Assembly (NCBI GenBank): GCA_000004985.1
Contig: GG738879.1
Length of the DNA stretch: 64,000 nucleotides
Source of the DNA: Naegleria gruberi
Taxonomy: Eukaryota
Strand: one strand, 5' to 3'
A program made the translations under genes and the position numbers. Of the stretch, positions 1 to 62,896 are shown one piece after another. Positions within the stretch are counted from its first letter, which is position 1. The number at the start of each line of letters is the position of its first letter. The notes beneath the pieces are model-generated. The model searched no databases, had not been told where the DNA came from, and was given only the letters and a program-made list of their open reading frames with translations.

Positions 1-1352
1 AACCAAAATGGGAAACGACCACCAACAGCATGATTACCAACGAATGTATTGTTTGGATTCGTAATCCAAAATACTGAAACATCAGAATCAGATAAAATGA
101 TTTGACGAGGATTTTCTCTTGAGATTGGAATGGGGTCAACGCCCAAATTATTGTTAAATTCGTTTCCTACTTCAGAACCATCCTCTAAAAAGTACATATG
201 ACCAAAAGCACGATAACAAACATTATTCTTCAGAAGAATATAATTAGTATCGTGAACAACAAAACATCTTTGGTAACTGTGATGAACTGTGTTATGTGAA
301 ATTCAATCCAAATGGTTTGTTTTGTAACAAGTGGAAATGGAAACTATTGAAATTAATGAATATTAAATAACAACAGTTAGATAAATTATTAAAAACCAAA
401 CATACCTATATCTTCCCATTAAACCTTGTTGACCAAATCTTGTAATTTCAACTCCTTCCATTTGGAACTTTTCAACCAAACGAATAATAAAGTGACCACC
501 AAATAATGAACTCTCAGACGAATCATCCCCTCTAAAGACAATTCTTCTTGTTAATAAACCAACCTCTGCACGGATCTTTCCATTTGCACTTGCAAAGTGA
601 GTAAAGTTCAATGCTCTATCAAGAACAACAGTCTTATTACCATTCAATAATTGAATAATCTTTCGTTCTTCATTTTGATTTGGGAATGGTTCTCCTCTAA
701 TCCATCCCAAGGAAGCATTCTTTTCAACTCTATAATCATACACCTCACCATAGTCAGTAGAACTAACAACAATAGAATCACCAACATTCCAAGTAACGGC
801 ATCTCTCAACTCAAGTTGATTAATTCCCTTGGATGCATTCTTAACAATTTCTGTCCAACTTGGACCATAAACTTTACCATACATTTGAACAATTGAACCA
901 CTTAAGAATGCAATACCCTTAGAACCCAAACTTGCTCCATCATATGGATCTGAACCAATGTCATTAACTGAACTGCTCACACGATCGCCATAGAATGTAA
1001 CAACAACCTTTGAAGTGATTGGACAACTTGAACTTCCCATAATAAAACTACCATTTGATTCAACTCTAATAAAATTCAAATCCAAGCTCAAATTTACATT
1101 ATCAAATATTAAAGAACCACCTGATTTGACCGTAATCGAACGTAATCTATTGGGAGGAGAGACATTCATCTTGACAGCGTTTGAGATAACAATATCAGAA
1201 TTTGCTACATTCCATCCAGTCAAAGTATTAAAATTGACTAGACCAGCTTGTTGATATGGGCATTGTCCAAAAACCAACACACTTTCAATCATAAGTAAAC
1301 ACAATAAAGTGCTCACAAGTAAGATTGTAATACAATGTTTGTTGCAATACAT
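1..1352 (-). CDS. Secreted G8-domain protein, CEMIP/TMEM2-like, 5' part only. Exon 1 is about 1352 down to 408, with more exons toward the window start and at least one small intron (GTATGT...CAATAG, about 344-407). The gene runs off the window.
   Basis: ATG at 1352 is followed by a signal peptide (MYCNKHCITILLVSTLLCLLMIESVLVFGQ). The long glycine-punctuated G8-domain pattern ends in ...GLMGRY. Minus-strand translation of 1-300 gives ...SHNTVHHSYQRCFVVHDTNYILLKNNVCYRAFGHMYFLEDGSEVGNEFNN...SVFWITNPNNTFVGNHAVGGRFPFWF. From recalled CEMIP sequence, SIHHTFSRCVTVHG and FWMANPNN sit immediately after the G8 domain and match this. The exact splice junctions between 300 and 410 are unresolved. Confidence 0.6.
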
Positions 1353-1973
1353 GTCTTGATTTTTTTTTCTGTGTTCTCATACCTTAATTCACACATTCTT
1401 GCTTTTCAATCTGTTTTTATGACGACAGTTGAAAGGTTTTAGACAAACACAAACGAATCAGCAATTTGAATTATTGGTTGGTAGGATGTGCTCCTTAATT
1501 ACAACAAAAATCCTTATTATTATGGTATTCAAGTCTGTTTGTTCTTCACCTTGATACCCAATCATCAATACGGAAGGTCCATTGAGCTGATTTTGGAAAT
1601 GATGAAACGTATGACAGGCACACCTATACATGTTCATGTGAATACAGTGTTACCAATACTCTAGTAATTTGCTAAATAAAATTACACTACAGTAATATAT
1701 TCTCTATCTGGTTGAAAAATACAAATAAATTGTTGTATAAAGCTGTTGAGAAACATTTGCTGTTGTTATGATGAAGATCAAAATCCAAGGTTTTGCAGAA
1801 GAATGCAAAACATCATCCCGAAGCTGCTAAATTTGTCATTTTTTATTTAAAATCCACAACAGCAACCATTCTGCCATTTCTTAAGGCTCACTCAAGCAGA
1901 CCAATGCTCCCTTATCGACCACTACTATTATTCAACATCGATCCAAGTGTGATATATTAGCATTACATAATAT

Positions 1974-2804
1974 CAGGGGGGCGGAAAGTTGGTATCAGCC
2001 CAGCGAAAATGTTGAGATTCTTCAAAGTGATTCCAAGTTGATATATGTTTTTACAATCAATATAGAATGCTAAACTACAATCGCTTCATAACTTATCATA
2101 AAATACTTGAATTTTACTATTATTGATTTAAATATTAAATAAATAATCTATTTTAAGAGAAATTAAACAAACTAGTCCATTCTGGGACGAACATAATATA
2201 TAATAATATTGTATAGATTTTATTGCATTATTATATATGTTAATAGATTACTTGTCCTAAAATAATTTGTTTTTATGAAGCAGATGTTGTGAACAAGTAA
2301 ATTTCTTATTTAAATTTTGAGCCATAAAAATATTGACTGATTAGGAAGTTTCAAAAACAATAAATATGGTGAATTAAAAAAATAGCTATCCTCAAATCAT
2401 TTTAAATTGCATTTACTCCAATATTTGAAGATATGAAACATTTTAACCTTTCTTTCGTGGTAGCTGCGTAATTTTAAAAATCAGTGTTTTTCGCTTGGTT
2501 GTTACTTTACTATTTTGAGGTTGATAACCAACATTCGTTCTTGAGATATGAGCAAAAACAAAAAAATAGCTATTCTCAAATCGTTCTAAATCTTGTTTAC
2601 TGTTAAAAAAGACGATTTAATTTAAATAATTCTACCATTTCGTGGTAGCTGATTACAAAGTTTAATAGTGTATGAATTCATTGAGTTACTTTTCTTGCTG
2701 CAAAAAATGTCAAACTCAAAAATAAACTACAGATTACAAAATATTTGTTTATTGTGTTCATTTTTTCCTTTACTCAACATTTTTCTTCACTTTCCGCCCC
2801 CCTG
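1974..2804. mobile_element. Non-autonomous hAT-like DNA transposon (MITE-like), 831 bp. It has imperfect terminal inverted repeats of about 45 bp and an 8-bp target-site duplication CATAATAT at 1966-1973 and 2805-2812.
   Basis: The left end CAGGGGGGCGGAAAGT (1974-) is the exact reverse complement of the right end ACTTTCCGCCCCCCTG (-2804). A second shared block GAAAATGTTGAG lies about 20 nt inside both ends. Identical CATAATAT direct repeats flank the element. An 8-bp TSD and a CAG-initial TIR are typical of the hAT superfamily. There is no ORF inside. Confidence 0.6.
2381..2660. repeat. Tandem duplication of a roughly 180-bp unit inside the hAT-like element.
   Basis: AAAAATAGCTATCCTCAAATCATTTTAAATTGCATTTACT...TTTCGTGGTAGCTGCGTAATTTT (2381-2474) recurs as AAAAAAATAGCTATTCTCAAATCGTTCTAAATCTTGTTTACT...TTTCGTGGTAGCTGATTACAAAG (2561-2660). 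Confidence 0.55.
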
Positions 2805-2897
2805 CATAATATTTGAACACTCATCTTTTTTTCATAGTTGATCACTGCTGAAAGAACAAGCACTTCGATTTTCCACTCGAACTCTAGGAAGAAAAAA

Positions 2898-3665
2898 ATG
2901 CAACAAGAGCAAAAGGCGCCCACAACAGAGGAGAACAAGCAGAACATCAATGGTGATGAAATTCCAAAACTTTTCCATAGTGGTAAGGTGGTGAGAGGTC
3001 CTAGACACTTGAAACAAATCAAAAACCAGCAAACATTGGTGAGGGAGGAAAAGAAAAACCAATCATCACTTGAGAAGATACCAACAGAAATTACAAGTGA
3101 AGAGGATTATTGGAGTTTTAGAACAAATAAATTGCAACAGCAACGATCTGAAAGTTCTGCAAAGAAGACATGTTTGGATATTTATTCCAATGTAGTTCAC
3201 AAGTTGAAAGATGGTAGCGAAAAGGAGAATGAAATGCCATTAGCATTAGACAATAGTAATCGAGGGGTGAATACTCAATTATTCAGTGGATTAGTATTTT
3301 TCTTCAATAGCATACGAGGAAGTGGTCCAAATTCTCAATATAATCTAGTGAAATTGGCCTCTGTTCATGGAGCAACAGTACTGTAAGTTTTCTCATTCAA
3401 AATTTATTGAAACACTAACATTGAAAACAGACCAAATCCATCAAGAAAGAGAAAACTCACTCATGTCATTGCTTCCAACTTGCCAAACTCTAAAATTGAA
3501 AGAATGGAAAACAAGAAACACATTTCCAATCTTCATGTAAAATATGTCACTCCTTCATGGTTGACCGATTCAATTACACAAAATAAGGTACTTTCAGAGG
3601 CTTCCTATCTTCTCACCAAACCTAACTCTCCATCAACAACTAAATTCTTTACTATCAAAAAATAA
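2898..3665 (+). CDS. BRCT-domain protein, two exons: 2898..3382 and 3431..3665, about 239 aa.
   Basis: ATG after an A7 run. The 48-nt intron is GTAAGTTTTCTCATTCAAAATTTATTGAAACACTAACATTGAAAACAG, with an ACTAAC branch motif. The spliced frame joins ...LFSGLVFFFNSIRGSGPNSQYNLVKLASVHGATVL to PNPSRKRKLTHVIASNLPNSKIE...VKYVTPSWLTDSI..., a canonical BRCT fold signature (F.G..F...G, THVIA, W..DSI). Confidence 0.6.
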
Positions 3666-3851
3666 TAATTATTGTTTTAATAATTGAAATTTTAAGGAAC
3701 TATCGAATTTGTGAAGTTAACATTATTGAACAATTTCATAATAAAATGATGGGTTTCCAATATTTCTTAATGAGACTATTTGGAAAGTGTGAAAGCCATT
3801 ACAATACTTCATCAAGAAATAATATTTAATAATTTATTTAAATTAAAAAAA

Positions 3852-6800
3852 ATGTCTAAAAAACAACCAAGCGAACTTTCTATTGATGATTTGCTTCGGG
3901 AAATTGATCAGACTGTTTATGAGCAACCAAAGGAAAATACTCGTGAGATTCCATTCCAAATCAGAGGAAGTGGTCTTGTAGGAGATGTTTCCTTGTACAA
4001 TGTTGGCTTTCAATTTGGCAATGATTACTTTAAACATGCCGAAAAACAAGGAAAGGAAGCCTTCTCATCAACTCACGTTCCATTCCCAAAACAATTGGAA
4101 CCATCCGAGTATATGAAACAAGCCTATTTGACACCTAAATTGGAAAATGCTCAAGAGGATTATCGTATCTTCCCTAGATTATTTAAACCAAACGAATTGT
4201 ATTCATTGGCTGTTTCCAAACCAAAATATGTTATTGAAACAGTTAAAGATCCATTCACTGGAAAAATTAAAGAATGCAAAGAGATTTATAGTCCACAAGC
4301 AAATGACACTTCAAAATCCTCAACATCATTATTGAGACAACCTGCTGCCAGTAAAGACTTTGTTAGAGGTAGCAGTCACAATGTTCCTTTCCATTTTGGA
4401 GGTATTGATAGAGATGAAGAAAGAGGAATTGAACAAGTTTTGGAAGGAGAAGCTGAAGCTAACAATGAACCTACTATTGTCAATGTCTTTGATAGACCAA
4501 TTGAAGAGGAATTGAAGTTATTATCTCAACAAGACAATGAAAAGGATTACTCTTCAGTCGTTGATGGTTTGGAAACAAGACCAAGTGGATTCAAACATGG
4601 TCTCTTCCATTCTGCCAACAAAAGTCAAGCTAATATTGACACTACTGATTTGAATGCTTTGGCTGTCGGTAAAAATCAACAAGGATTATTGGATGCCTAC
4701 AAGCAGGATATTTCTAATTACAATATTGATGGAAATGAAGAAGTTTTCTTGTCTGTCGAACAACAAAGAGAACTCAGAAGAAGAGAAGAATCTAGAAATA
4801 GAAAGGAACAATTACTCAATTTTACAGAAGTCTTTTCGTCAACACTATCTGATGATCCATTTGGAAATATTGAAGAAGATTACAGTGAAAATAACCAAAC
4901 TAATGGACAAGTTGCTACTTCTGGTAGCTCTCCAACTGTTCAAGCATCAGCTGAAGAAGAAAAACAAAAACAAGTTGCTGAAATTAGAAAAGTTAAAAAC
5001 AGATCTGAATATACTATTGATGATCTTTTGGATGCCGATGAAGATGTCTTGTATTCCTCATTTATCAAGAAGCAAGGTAAAAGACAAAAAGAAAATGAAT
5101 ATGCCATCATGTCTCGTGTTGATGTTTCTAACTTTAAGCAATTAGTCCCAGAAATGGCTATTCAATATCCTTTTGATTTGGATATTTTCCAAAAAGAAGC
5201 TGTTTACCACTTGGAAAATAATGAAAGCGTCTTTGTTTCTGCCCACACTAGTGCTGGTAAAACTGTTGTTGCCGAATATGCTATTGCTCTGGCACAAAAA
5301 CACTTGACAAGAGTTATCTATACCTCTCCAATCAAAACTCTATCTAACCAAAAGTTCCGTGAATTCAAAAAGACCTTTGGTGATGTTGGTATCTTAACAG
5401 GTGATGTTCAAATCAATCCAACTGCTACTTGCTTAATCATGACAACAGAAATTTTGCGTTCCATGTTATATAAGGGTGCTGACTTGATCAGAGATGTTGA
5501 ATGGGTCATTTTCGATGAAGTTCACTACGTCAACGATCCTGAAAGAGGTGTCGTTTGGGAAGAAGTTATTATTATGCTTCCAAAACATATTAACCTTATT
5601 TTACTCTCAGCTACAATTCCAAATACCTATGACTTTGCTGATTGGGTTGGTAGAACCAAGAAAAAGAAGATTCACGTCATTCAAACATTCAAGAGACCTG
5701 TTCCTCTTGAACATCATTTGTACTATAATGGAAATATTTACAAGATTGTCGATTCCAATTCTAAATTCCTTGCTGCAGGTTATAGATCTGCTCTTTCAGC
5801 TGAAGAAGAAAAGGAAGAAAAGAATAAGAGTAGAGGTGGATTCAAAAAGACACCATATTCCAAGCTGATTGAAACTCTCAATAAGAAGAATTTACTTCCT
5901 GCTGTTACTTTCGTTTTCAGTAGAAAACAATGTGAAGATATCGCCATTTCTCTTCAAAATACAGATCTCAATGAGGCTGGAGAAAAGAATGAGATTCACA
6001 GATTTATTAATCAATCAGTTTCCAGATTGAAGGGATCTGATAAGGAATTACCTCAAATTGTGAGAATTTCTGACTTGCTCAAGAGAGGTATTGGTATTCA
6101 CCACTCTGGTTTATTACCAATCGTTAAGGAAATTGTAGAAATTTTGTTTTCAAAAGGTCTTATCAAGGTACTCTTTGCTACAGAAACATTTGCTATGGGT
6201 GTTAACAGTCCAACAAAGACTGTAGTTTTCAACACATTATGGAAGTTTGATGGTAGAGACAAGAGAGATTTATTGTCTGGAGAATATATTCAAATGAGTG
6301 GTAGAGCTGGTAGAAGAGGTCTCGATACTGTTGGTAACGTTATTATCAATTGTGCTTCTGAAATTCCTGAAGAACCTCTTCTCCAAAGATTAATCCTTGG
6401 TAAAGCAACTCACCTTGAAAGTAAATTCAAGTTGAGTTACAACATGATTTTGAACTTGATGAGAGTTGAAGATTTCAAGATTCAAGACATGATTAAGAGA
6501 TCCTTCTCTGAGAGCAGAACTCAACAAATTGTACCAAACAAGGAACTTTTGCTTAAGAGTAAGGAAAAGTTGGCAGAAATTGAGAATATTGATTGTATTA
6601 ACGGAGAACCTGCTATCGAACCATTCTATGCTGTTGCAAGAGATTTAGAAGATTTGAACTACAAGATTACAATGGAAGTCATGACAAATTCAAAGGTTGG
6701 AACATTGTTAACATTTGGTAGAGTTGTTGTTGCTAGATACAAGCTTGGATATACTTTGGCCATTCTTGTTCGTCAAGATACTTCAACCACCAATAAGGAT

Positions 6801-7919
6801 GACAAATTCTACGTACTTTTGGCTGTCAAACTTAATCCATCATTTGAAAGAAGAAAACAAATCATTCCAATCCCAACTGTTTCTGGACTCCCAGAATTTT
6901 CTCCAATCTTGCTTCCTCAAACTGGAGAGCTTAGTACTTTGATTGCTTGTCCTTCCTATGATATTTTAACAATTTGTAATGAAAAACTCAACTTGACATC
7001 ATCCATGGAAGAATTTAGTTTCCATAAGGAAACATCAGAAATGAGAGCAGCTGCCAATCAACTTATCAACATTTGGAAAGAAAAACCACCAACACCAATG
7101 AATATCGTTAAGGAACTCAAATTATCATCCCTAGAATTTACTGAAGCACTGTCAAAGAGACAACAAATTATTCTCAAGCTTCAAGAAAACAAGTGTAACA
7201 TTTGTCCTAAATTGGAGGAACACTTTGATAAGATTGATAAGCAACACAAGATTAGACAAGGTCTCGATAAATTGAGATATGCCCTTTCAGATGAAAACTT
7301 GGAATTGATGCCAGAAGTTAGAAAGAGAATCAAGGTACTCAAATTGTTGAAATATGTAGATATTGATGAAACTGTACAATTGAAGGGTAGAGTTGCTTGC
7401 GAATTGAACTCTTGTGATGAAATGTTAGTTACTGAAATGATCTTTGAAAACTTCTTTACAACCATGACATGTGAAGAAGCTGTTGCCGTTCTCTCATGTT
7501 TGGTTTGTCAATCAAGAGGAGAATCAGAAGAACCAACCCTCACCAAGAGATTACAAGAATTGAAAGATAAGGTTTCAAACTTGGCTCTCAGTCTTGGTCA
7601 ACTTCAAATGGAAAATGGTTTAGACACAAGCCCAACTGATTACCTCTCCAAGACTCTTAACTTCTCAATGATGGAAGTTGCCTATGAATGGGCAATGGGA
7701 CAAGAATTCAAAGACATTTGTTCTCTCACAACCATTCCAGAAGGTACTGTTGTGAGAAGTATTTCACAATTGGATCAAGCACTTCGTGATGTAAGAAATG
7801 CTGCTCGTATTATTGGTGATACCAACCTTTACCAAAAGATGGAAGAATCCTCTAGAAAGATTCGTCGTGATATTATCTTTGCGGCATCATTATTCTTATT
7901 CCCGACTGATGAGAAATAA
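3852..7919 (+). CDS. SKI2: SKI2-type (Ski2/SKIV2L-like) DExH-box RNA helicase, 1355 aa.
   Basis: ATG after an A-run. Helicase motifs I (AHTSAGKT), II (DEVH), III (SAT) and VI (QMSGRAGRRG) are present. The arch/KOW-like region and a DSHCT-like C-terminus (WAMGQEF...TIPEGTVVRSISQLDQALRDV) are present. The long low-complexity N-terminus is typical of Ski2 rather than Mtr4. Confidence 0.8.
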   Translation: MSKKQPSELSIDDLLREIDQTVYEQPKENTREIPFQIRGSGLVGDVSLYNVGFQFGNDYFKHAEKQGKEAFSSTHVPFPKQLEPSEYMKQAYLTPKLENAQEDYRIFPRLFKPNELYSLAVSKPKYVIETVKDPFTGKIKECKEIYSPQANDTSKSSTSLLRQPAASKDFVRGSSHNVPFHFGGIDRDEERGIEQVLEGEAEANNEPTIVNVFDRPIEEELKLLSQQDNEKDYSSVVDGLETRPSGFKHGLFHSANKSQANIDTTDLNALAVGKNQQGLLDAYKQDISNYNIDGNEEVFLSVEQQRELRRREESRNRKEQLLNFTEVFSSTLSDDPFGNIEEDYSENNQTNGQVATSGSSPTVQASAEEEKQKQVAEIRKVKNRSEYTIDDLLDADEDVLYSSFIKKQGKRQKENEYAIMSRVDVSNFKQLVPEMAIQYPFDLDIFQKEAVYHLENNESVFVSAHTSAGKTVVAEYAIALAQKHLTRVIYTSPIKTLSNQKFREFKKTFGDVGILTGDVQINPTATCLIMTTEILRSMLYKGADLIRDVEWVIFDEVHYVNDPERGVVWEEVIIMLPKHINLILLSATIPNTYDFADWVGRTKKKKIHVIQTFKRPVPLEHHLYYNGNIYKIVDSNSKFLAAGYRSALSAEEEKEEKNKSRGGFKKTPYSKLIETLNKKNLLPAVTFVFSRKQCEDIAISLQNTDLNEAGEKNEIHRFINQSVSRLKGSDKELPQIVRISDLLKRGIGIHHSGLLPIVKEIVEILFSKGLIKVLFATETFAMGVNSPTKTVVFNTLWKFDGRDKRDLLSGEYIQMSGRAGRRGLDTVGNVIINCASEIPEEPLLQRLILGKATHLESKFKLSYNMILNLMRVEDFKIQDMIKRSFSESRTQQIVPNKELLLKSKEKLAEIENIDCINGEPAIEPFYAVARDLEDLNYKITMEVMTNSKVGTLLTFGRVVVARYKLGYTLAILVRQDTSTTNKDDKFYVLLAVKLNPSFERRKQIIPIPTVSGLPEFSPILLPQTGELSTLIACPSYDILTICNEKLNLTSSMEEFSFHKETSEMRAAANQLINIWKEKPPTPMNIVKELKLSSLEFTEALSKRQQIILKLQENKCNICPKLEEHFDKIDKQHKIRQGLDKLRYALSDENLELMPEVRKRIKVLKLLKYVDIDETVQLKGRVACELNSCDEMLVTEMIFENFFTTMTCEEAVAVLSCLVCQSRGESEEPTLTKRLQELKDKVSNLALSLGQLQMENGLDTSPTDYLSKTLNFSMMEVAYEWAMGQEFKDICSLTTIPEGTVVRSISQLDQALRDVRNAARIIGDTNLYQKMEESSRKIRRDIIFAASLFLFPTDEK

Positions 7920-8006
7920 ATTCCATCATCTTTAATAATAATTAATTATCTTTTGCTGTATCGTGCTGTTAATAGAAATAAATTAATAATTAATTATTTA
8001 TTTACA

Positions 8007-8510
8007 TTATTTATCCTTCTTATTCATATCCTCCCATTCCTTCAGCCATCCGACAACTCTATACTTCATTTCAAAGTGATTATACATTCCGTACAAGTTA
8101 TCCTTTTCAAAAGCACCAAGACTAGAAATATCCAATTGATCCAAAAGACTTGGCTTGAGTTCATTCTTGGCTAAAGCCACAGAGCTTTCATGTCCAGCAA
8201 ACATATCATATGTTTCATTTGGTCCATAGAAGCCACTACCAGTAACATCAAAAATCTTTCCAAGAACACTAACATAGATTTTCTTGTTAGGATTGGTAGA
8301 ACTTTCAACACCATTGTAGGTGTGTAATTCTTCAAGAGTAAATTCTCTCTCTTCAATCTTTTCTTCTTCTTCATCACTGTCAGAATCTGATGATGAACTG
8401 TAGGCATCTCCGGAAGCTGTCTTGCCCTTGCTCTGATTACTATACATATTATAAATAAAAACAGCTCCAACAATAAAAACTGCTATTATCAACACGGTTG
8501 TCAAATCCAT
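8007..8510 (-). CDS. Membrane-associated progesterone-receptor (MAPR/PGRMC/Dap1-like) cytochrome b5-like heme/steroid-binding protein, paralog 1.
   Basis: N-terminal TM helix, acidic SSSSDSDSDEEEE linker, then the cyt-b5-like core KIYVSVLGKIFDVTGSGFYGPNETYDMFAGHESSVALA matching the MAPR family. Confidence 0.75.
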   Translation of the reverse strand: MDLTTVLIIAVFIVGAVFIYNMYSNQSKGKTASGDAYSSSSDSDSDEEEEKIEEREFTLEELHTYNGVESSTNPNKKIYVSVLGKIFDVTGSGFYGPNETYDMFAGHESSVALAKNELKPSLLDQLDISSLGAFEKDNLYGMYNHFEMKYRVVGWLKEWEDMNKKDK

Positions 8511-52679: not shown

Positions 52680-54422
52680 ATGGTAAGTTTTCTCTTGTAT
52701 TATGTGAGTCACTAATCAAGCCTTAAAAATTAGTCTGCTGTTGCACAACAATCAAAGACGCAATCCATCACACATGAAGAGTCTTTGACTCTAATGAGAA
52801 ATTTGATGAGAACTGCAATATCTTCTGTTTGCTATTTGAGAAATTTATTTCCTGAGGATTGTTTTCAAGACAAGTCTCTGAGTGGAATCCAAATCAAGTC
52901 TCTTCAGCCTTCAAATGAGGAGGCAAGAACACTTATCGATTGGTTAGAGAAGGGTGTGTTTGAAGCCTTGAAGAAGAAATATCTGAGAACTATAATCTTT
53001 GGAGTCTGTTCTGATCCAAGTAGAGAAATTGATTCAATGCTTGAGAGCTATGAATGTAAGTATTACACAAACTGGTTTGTTCAATTATCTGCTCTATCAG
53101 TCAAAGTAACCTATCCGGATAAGGAAGAAGGCCAGTTGAACATCTCAAGAGCAGCTGATTCGAACAAGACTAATAAGAAGATTGGAATTAAAGGAACTCA
53201 AACCAAACAAGAAATTACTCAATCAATGGTTATGATGCTTAGAACCCTCATCACTCTTGCTCAGACACTTCAACCAATTCCAGAAACTAGATATATTACC
53301 ATGAAACTACTCTACTATGAAGATGTTACTCCTAGAGATTATGAGCCATCTTTCTTTAGAGCTTTGAGAGAGGATGAATCCAGAAAATTCAATCAAGATT
53401 TTGTCAAACTGAAGATTGGGCAAGTTCAAACTCAATATCACTCGTTGAATATTCGTGTAAGAACCGCATCTGAATCATTTGAAGATGAAGATGGTAAATC
53501 AGTCACCTCAGAGATGTTATCCTCCTGCCCTATAGACAAGAATAATTCACATCCAACCTCCTCTCAATGGGCTGTCAATGTACCAGAGAATAAGCTCGAA
53601 ACAAAGAAGGAATATGATAGCGATTCGACTCAGCTTTCCCAACAGGATGACAACACTAAGCAATCAAGCAGTTGTGAAGAGAAATTATTCCTTGCAGATT
53701 TGGAAAAGATTGGTTGGTTCAATTTCCAACTCAAATCTGTCAGTAAACTATTATCCAACAAGTATCCATCTGTCACGGGCGAAATAGCTAAAGAATTGGT
53801 AATTGCCAAGAGAACCAAACTGGTCAAAGATATGGAAGATCATGAGAAGACCTATTACAAAGCACTTGCATATGTTTTAGAAGAGGATCATATTACAGCA
53901 AGTTCTCTATCCAGTGAATTAGATATCAGTTCCTACTCAGCAACCAAGTTAATCTCCCAAATGGAAAAGGAGGGTCTCCTTAAAGCTGCCTCAACAAAGA
54001 GAAAAGGGAAGAAGGTAATGCACAACAATAAGAGACTTGAAGAAGCAAAAGAGTTCATTGAATTTGAACAGTATTTGAAGCAACCTAAGACTGAATCCAC
54101 CTCCTCTCCATCCAAATCACCAGAAGCTAAAAAGAAGCAAGAATTTGATTATTCGGACTCTGATTCAGAAATTTCAAATCATGAAGAGAGTGATATCAAA
54201 CCAACTCCCAAAAAGGCTGTTCATTCCTCACCAACCGTCACTAGTCCACCAAAGCAACCTGAATCAGTTGATAAAAGAGGTGTAAAGAGAAAGACTATTT
54301 CTCAATTTGAAGTCAGTCACAGTCAAGATGAAATAACTGCCAATGATAGAGAGAATGAAGAAAATCCATCATCTTCTAAGGTGGATTTGGATTCAATCAA
54401 CTACAGTTACTCAATTTTGTGA
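52680..54422 (+). CDS. HORMA-domain protein (Hop1/HORMAD/ASY1-like meiotic axis component). The model is ATG (52680..52682) directly followed by a 51-nt intron, then 52734..54422.
   Basis: HORMA N-terminal signature ...ESLTLMRNLMRTAISSVCYLRNLFPEDCF...GIQIKSL...WLEKGVFEALKKKYL...IIFGVCSD. The safety-belt region TQSMVMMLRTLITLAQTLQP is present. AAAATG|GTAAGT...ACTAAT...TTAG lies immediately upstream of an in-frame continuation (SAVAQQSKTQSITHEESLTL-). The intronless alternative is ATG at 52794. Confidence 0.6.
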
Positions 54423-62742: not shown

Positions 62743-62824
62743 ATTGAATAAAACAATCACTCAATTTTAGATATTTCCTTAATATTATTGAATGAAAACA
62801 AAAAAAGGAAAGATTAAAAAGGTG

Positions 62825-62896
62825 TAGGAAGACAGGGAATCGAACCCTGATCTTAGGAACCACAATCCCATGTTCTACCACTGAACTATCTCCCTT
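62825..62896 (-). tRNA. tRNA-His (anticodon GUG).
   Basis: Minus-strand cloverleaf: acceptor AGGGAGA/TCTTCCT (one G-U), D-arm GTTC-AGTGGTA-GAAC, anticodon stem TGGGA/TCCTA with loop TTGTGGT (GTG), T-arm CAGGG-TTCGATT-CCCTG. No encoded CCA. Confidence 0.8.

Follow-up and report, generated by a model that had tools for sequence, protein, structure and literature searches.

An 831-bp non-autonomous, probably hAT-like DNA transposon between a G8-domain gene and a BRCT gene of Naegleria gruberi, with a precise empty site in a close relative

We analysed a 64-kb stretch of the Naegleria gruberi NEG-M genome, here called the window, in which an 831-bp segment with the features of a transposable element lies between two divergently transcribed genes. 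The first exon of a G8-domain gene occupies 363..1352 on the minus strand (Pfam G8, E = 8.6e-21) and is transcribed away from the element, and on the opposite side an ORF at 2898..3386 on the plus strand forms the first exon of a BRCT gene. The BRCT match in the window itself is weak (Pfam BRCT_2, E = 6.4e-5), and the syntenic N. fowleri orthologue carries a BRCT domain. The Pfam results and this orthologue agree with an earlier note, made from the letters alone, which had placed the element in the G8-BRCT spacer. Comparison of window positions 1-8510 with locus L001 (6068-14689) further showed that the gene order BRCT, SKI2 and, on the opposite strand, a cytochrome-b5-like/steroid-binding gene is common to N. 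gruberi and N. fowleri, and that the two species differ upstream of BRCT, where N. gruberi has the G8-domain gene and N. fowleri one that matches a SAM domain weakly.

Several other features of the window are recorded here in their own right. The SKI2-like helicase is encoded by an uninterrupted 1355-aa ORF at 3852-7919 (plus strand), whose best database matches are from N. fowleri (80-81% identity), an ENA protein (81%) and Willaertia (71%); no N. gruberi entry was found among these best matches, nor any record of the exact product, while 6 of 10 ORF products of the window exactly match NEG-M protein entries. The NEG-M annotation may lack this gene or contain a wrong model of it. An ORF at 52785-54422 (plus strand) has a strong HORMA domain (E = 3.6e-59), and in its C-terminal half a winged-helix domain (FtsK-gamma or MarR type) is matched weakly, short of the Pfam cut-off; this pairing looks unusual. 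The sole RNA gene detected in the window is a tRNA-His (anticodon GTG) at 62824-62895 on the minus strand, and multi-copy genes of the histone, ubiquitin and calmodulin kinds are absent from the window.

The segment itself spans 1974-2804 and has a GC content of 27%, compared with 29-37% for the surrounding window. It begins with the terminal inverted repeat (TIR) CAGGGGGGCGGAAAGT at 1974..1989 (plus strand) and ends with the exact reverse complement at 2789..2804 (minus strand), the two arms being complementary at 16/16 bp, so that the termini read CAGGGGGGCGG...CCGCCCCCCTG with CAG..CTG ends. Each TIR directly adjoins a copy of the 8-bp sequence CATAATAT, at 1966..1973 on the left and at 2805..2812 on the right. 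Allowing up to 3 mismatches, CAGGGGGGCGGAAAGT was found at two sites in the 64 kb, both of them the ends of the element, and none of 100 shuffled sequences contained two or more such matches. When all inverted repeats of the window were enumerated (exact seed of at least 10 bp, arms 80-8000 bp apart), this was the only pair to have both a TIR of 13 bp or more and, next to it, a direct repeat of 3 bp or more. The 16-bp inverted termini and flanking 8-bp direct repeats described in the earlier note are thus exact and lie far beyond chance. A BLASTN search of the window with the element returned only the element and its own internal repeat, with no further copy within the 64 kb. MITEs are non-coding elements of high copy number, typically below about 800 bp; by size this non-coding element is a borderline case, its 831 bp being at or above what is usual.

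These observations bear directly on the reading that no mobile element is present and that a chance inverted repeat happens to stand beside a chance AT-rich direct repeat. The genome is AT-rich and an 8-mer such as CATAATAT is not rare in it, but the two TIR matches compare with 0.05 expected by chance, the pair with its flanking repeat is the only one of its kind among 1339, and the precise empty site described below refutes this explanation, to which we assign a negligible probability.

We found no sizeable ORF within the element, the longest with a start codon being 40 aa and the longest stop-to-stop frame 57 aa, as the earlier note had stated for the interior. The stop-free peptides of all six frames were joined (884 aa) and searched against a database of 5.8 billion proteins, a search meant to detect spurious gene calls on other copies of the element, and no homologue was obtained at E <= 10; the region 1800-3000 likewise gave no Rfam match even at E <= 1. 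Because it has no coding capacity, the element is non-autonomous, again as had been proposed. Inside the TIRs, the exact 11-mer AAAATGTTGAG is present as an inverted pair at 2006..2016 (plus strand, 32 nt from the left end) and at 2773..2783 (minus strand, 21 nt from the right end). An inner inverted block had been reported before as a 12-mer; the block exists, but as this 11-mer, and the pair taken alone is weakly significant (shuffle p about 0.07). It is speculative that these blocks may form part of a subterminal transposase-binding site, and no convincing reiterated subterminal hexamers of the hAT style were found in the element.

The interior further contains a duplication consisting of unit A (2366..2511, plus strand, core 2376-2417) and unit B (2550..2695, plus strand, core 2560-2601), which lies 184-185 bp downstream of unit A and was recognised through repeat families and alignment. 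Three collinear pairs of blocks share this offset of 184-185 bp, namely 2376-2417/2560-2601 (83% identity, rising to 91% over 32 nt), 2453-2466/2638-2651 (14 of 14 positions identical) and 2501-2511/2685-2695. The alignment score of the two units exceeded that of shuffled sequences by 7 standard deviations (z = 7), and by 3 standard deviations when the conserved core was left out, while overall identity between the units was about 53%; Tandem Repeats Finder did not call the repeat. The tandem duplication of roughly 180 bp noted earlier is accordingly real, with the amendment that it is old and strongly diverged.

A chimeric protein query that joined the G8 exon to the BRCT exons was searched against the protein database and identified P0131, a G8 fragment 98% identical to the G8 exon of the window, in the ENA metagenome ERZ929261. 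Its contig (L126, 4691 bp) spans the G8 exon, the spacer and the BRCT exon, the same 162-aa BRCT ORF being found at contig positions 365-853. Contig positions 939-2867 aligned to window positions 1973..1 at 95.7% identity, and contig positions 1-946 to window positions 3752..2805 at 97.9% identity, the two alignments overlapping by exactly 8 bp, which are CATAATAT (939-946). The contig accordingly reads ...GCATTA CATAATAT TTGAACACTC..., where NEG-M reads ...GCATTA CATAATAT (831 bp) CATAATAT TTGAACACTC...; CATAATAT occurs twice around the element in the window and once in the relative, from which the whole element is missing en bloc, with edges exactly at the outer ends of the TIRs. The empty-site check that the earlier note had suggested is thus positive, the spacer of a relative carrying a single CATAATAT and no element, and its 8-bp target-site duplication (TSD) holds, as both copies in the window align to this one sequence. 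The precision of the empty site rules out that the flanking match arose from mere local AT-rich redundancy, which the earlier note had named as a refutation, and the comparison proves, in the classical manner, that the segment was inserted by cut-and-paste transposition and that 8 bp of target were duplicated.

ERZ929261 (run ERR1078381, project PRJEB11402) is an environmental metagenome that holds two Naegleria lineages, the first (L125, L126) with about 96-98% nucleotide identity to NEG-M, non-coding DNA included, and the second (L127) with about 78% nucleotide and 82% amino acid identity. A second ERZ929261 contig was 97.6% identical to another part of the window, again including non-coding DNA, which shows that the lineage with the empty site is very close to NEG-M. 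In the left flank, the window and L126 also differ by a 2-bp indel (AC), window positions 1956-1962 reading GATAT--ATTAGC where L126 has GATATACATTAGC at about 955-965. The indel does not adjoin the insertion site, from which it is some 11 nt away, and is therefore improbable as an excision footprint. The L125/L126 lineage offers a ready source for presence/absence comparison of other NEG-M insertions.

The same alignment has to be weighed against the possibility that the segment is ancestral and was lost in the metagenome lineage, either through recombination or microhomology repair between the CATAATAT repeats or through precise transposon excision. With just two lineages compared, presence and absence cannot be polarised, and the spacers of the more distant Naegleria loci L001 and L127 are unalignable with the window. 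A chance deletion would, however, need end points that agree to the base with the outer ends of the perfect 16-bp TIRs, and for this reason we rate loss as very improbable. Excision by hAT transposases normally leaves footprints and does not restore the target exactly. Moreover, the spacer of the window without the insert (706 bp; 624 bp is the length on the metagenome contig) is close in length to that of the syntenic N. fowleri site (828 bp, with a different gene as upstream neighbour), and even under loss the segment would still be a transposon flanked by its duplication. Insertion in the NEG-M lineage is the reading we retain, and the comparison indicates that it is younger than the split between NEG-M and the metagenome lineage. 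The perfect TIRs, the perfect TSD and the absence of the element from a lineage 2-4% diverged point to an insertion that is recent.

The right end of the insertion lies 86 bp upstream of the BRCT ATG at 2898, and the element now cuts the BRCT gene off from all but these 86 bp of its upstream region. An effect of the insertion on BRCT expression is possible, and its position in the divergent promoter region, so near the BRCT gene, makes the locus a natural test case for the influence of a transposon on expression.

Because the element encodes nothing, its superfamily was inferred from structure alone. hAT elements are recognised structurally by an 8-bp duplication and a terminal YARNG motif (PMC3014272), their TSDs usually being 8 bp long (PMC12730594), and Repbase classifies non-autonomous elements by such structural features (PMC4455052). 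The element agrees with hAT in its 8-bp TSD, in its CAGGG terminus, which fits 5'-YARNG, and in its 16-bp TIR, which is inside the short-TIR range of hAT elements of about 10-25 bp; the Anolis hAT families tabulated have TIRs of 11-16 bp (PMC3014272). We consider it a non-autonomous class II (cut-and-paste, TIR) DNA transposon that probably belongs to the hAT superfamily, a placement to which we give somewhat better than even chances, since duplications of some 8 bp are also known from other superfamilies. The hAT-like label of the earlier note can be kept on these terms, in that TSD, short TIR and terminal motif fit, while the assignment is structure-based and unproven. The target consensus of hAT elements is nTnnnnAn, and CATAATAT, a single site, has the A at position 7 and an A rather than a T at position 2. 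A cognate hAT transposase, on an autonomous copy with the same termini, would combine a catalytic domain of the DDE/RNase H kind with a hAT dimerisation domain at its C-terminus and, in most cases, a BED finger. Of the 38 window ORFs of 150 aa or longer, 20 were scanned against Pfam, and none of these 20 contains a transposase domain.

Relatives of the element were also sought beyond the window. A composite pattern of the TIR and the subterminal block had 0 matches in the metagenome collection. The plain 16-mer TIR had at least 120 matches in metagenomes, and among the matches listed all were single, lay on contigs of at least 39% GC and had nothing in common with the element beyond the 16-mer. 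Scans of the viral and prokaryote-genome collections with the TIR gave single matches only, and the matches in all three collections appear to be due to chance. The absence of relatives from the metagenome, viral, prokaryote and protein collections searched, together with the poor cataloguing of transposons in Heterolobosea, might suggest an undescribed TIR lineage, specific to Naegleria or to heteroloboseans, that shares the 8-bp stagger and the CAG terminus with hAT by chance. We consider such a lineage improbable, as each measurable feature of the element already suits a known superfamily and these collections contain so little Naegleria sequence that the lack of matches is accounted for and is no evidence against the existence of a family.

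If the element is of the hAT type, as we favour, its insertion may be pictured by analogy with the hAT paradigm. An autonomous relative at another genomic site would supply the transposase in trans, and this enzyme would bind the TIRs and subterminal sequence and excise the element, with hairpins forming on the flanking DNA. The 3'-OH ends would then be joined to the target strands with an 8-bp stagger, after which host gap repair would yield the CATAATAT duplication. Such cut-and-paste steps are the established mechanism of hAT transposition, known from Hermes and Ac/Ds.

More tentatively, the element may mark a cut-and-paste family, hAT-like or new, that was recently active in N. gruberi and possibly still is, a view that we hold to be doubtful; otherwise it is an ordinary, routine insertion of a non-autonomous DNA transposon for which the hAT label is the best fit. 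On this view, the polymorphism between natural lineages 2-4% apart would point to a functional source of transposase in the NEG-M lineage. If the family were indeed active, such a system would give Heterolobosea its first DNA transposon of demonstrable mobility and could be considered as a vector for insertional mutagenesis or for transgenesis in N. gruberi, for which, to our knowledge, genetic tools are poor. Its distinctive G-rich 16-bp terminus could serve as a probe for the number of family members, for the autonomous element and for the transposase, and the insertion could be used as a presence/absence marker for strain typing.

Compared with known systems, the element might instead be a non-autonomous member of another superfamily known for TSDs of about 8 bp (P, Zisupton/KDZ, Merlin, Novosib or short-TIR Mutator-like), moved by the transposase of that family, an origin that we regard as possible, if rather unlikely. 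Zisupton/KDZ elements resemble it in making 8-bp TSDs and in having TIRs (PMC12730594), but all Zisupton elements described to date are large and encode proteins, and no Zisupton-like sequence was seen here. One paper assigns the YARNG terminal motif, present in the element, to P elements (PMC2820524). No report of a P transposase in Naegleria was found in the literature searched, nor one of hAT in Naegleria, where only mentions of MuDRF and Kolobok turned up. P elements make duplications of about 8 bp and have the canonical terminus CATGATG with 31-bp TIRs; the element is less like P (CATG... ends), Merlin (GG... ends) and Mutator-like elements (long TIRs) than it is like hAT. MuDRF (PMC3164196) and Kolobok (PMC9587614) are known from the same host genome and are, like the element, class II TIR transposons, but MuDRF makes 9-bp duplications (PMC3164196) and Kolobok has TTAA duplications with RR..YY termini (PMC9587614), whereas the element has the 8-bp CATAATAT with CAG..CTG ends. 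Given this mismatch, it belongs to neither family. Taken together, the CAGGG terminus, the 16-bp TIR and the 8-bp duplication make up the standard hAT signature (PMC3014272), and hAT is the assignment that we prefer.

The host sets the element apart from known hAT elements, since it resides in a heterolobosean amoeba and no published hAT was found for Heterolobosea. With known hAT elements, the similarity shown extends to 11 of 16 TIR positions, those at which the CAGGGG-initial 16-bp TIR is the same as the Anolis hAT-HT2 TIR CAGGGGTCCCCAAACT (PMC3014272). The Repbase rule for shared classification asks for the same duplication length and for positions 1-11 alignable with at most one mismatch (PMC4455052), and against hAT-HT2_AC (CAGGGGTCCCCAAACT), the sole TIR compared, the element has 4 mismatches in positions 1-11 and so fails the rule; the resemblance to hAT-HT2 is suggestive, to be taken as a lead and not as a test. 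In its overall architecture, the element is like other non-autonomous hAT elements, which have a non-coding, AT-rich interior of a few hundred bp and depend on a transposase in trans. Maize Ds1 is an example of such an element. The non-autonomous hAT elements and hAT MITEs of other hosts, such as the Anolis hAT-HT2N families (CAGGGGTCCCCAAACT, PMC3014272) and Drosophila Mar (PMC3517528), share with the N. gruberi element an 8-bp TSD and short TIRs (11-16 bp) that begin with CAG/YARNG.
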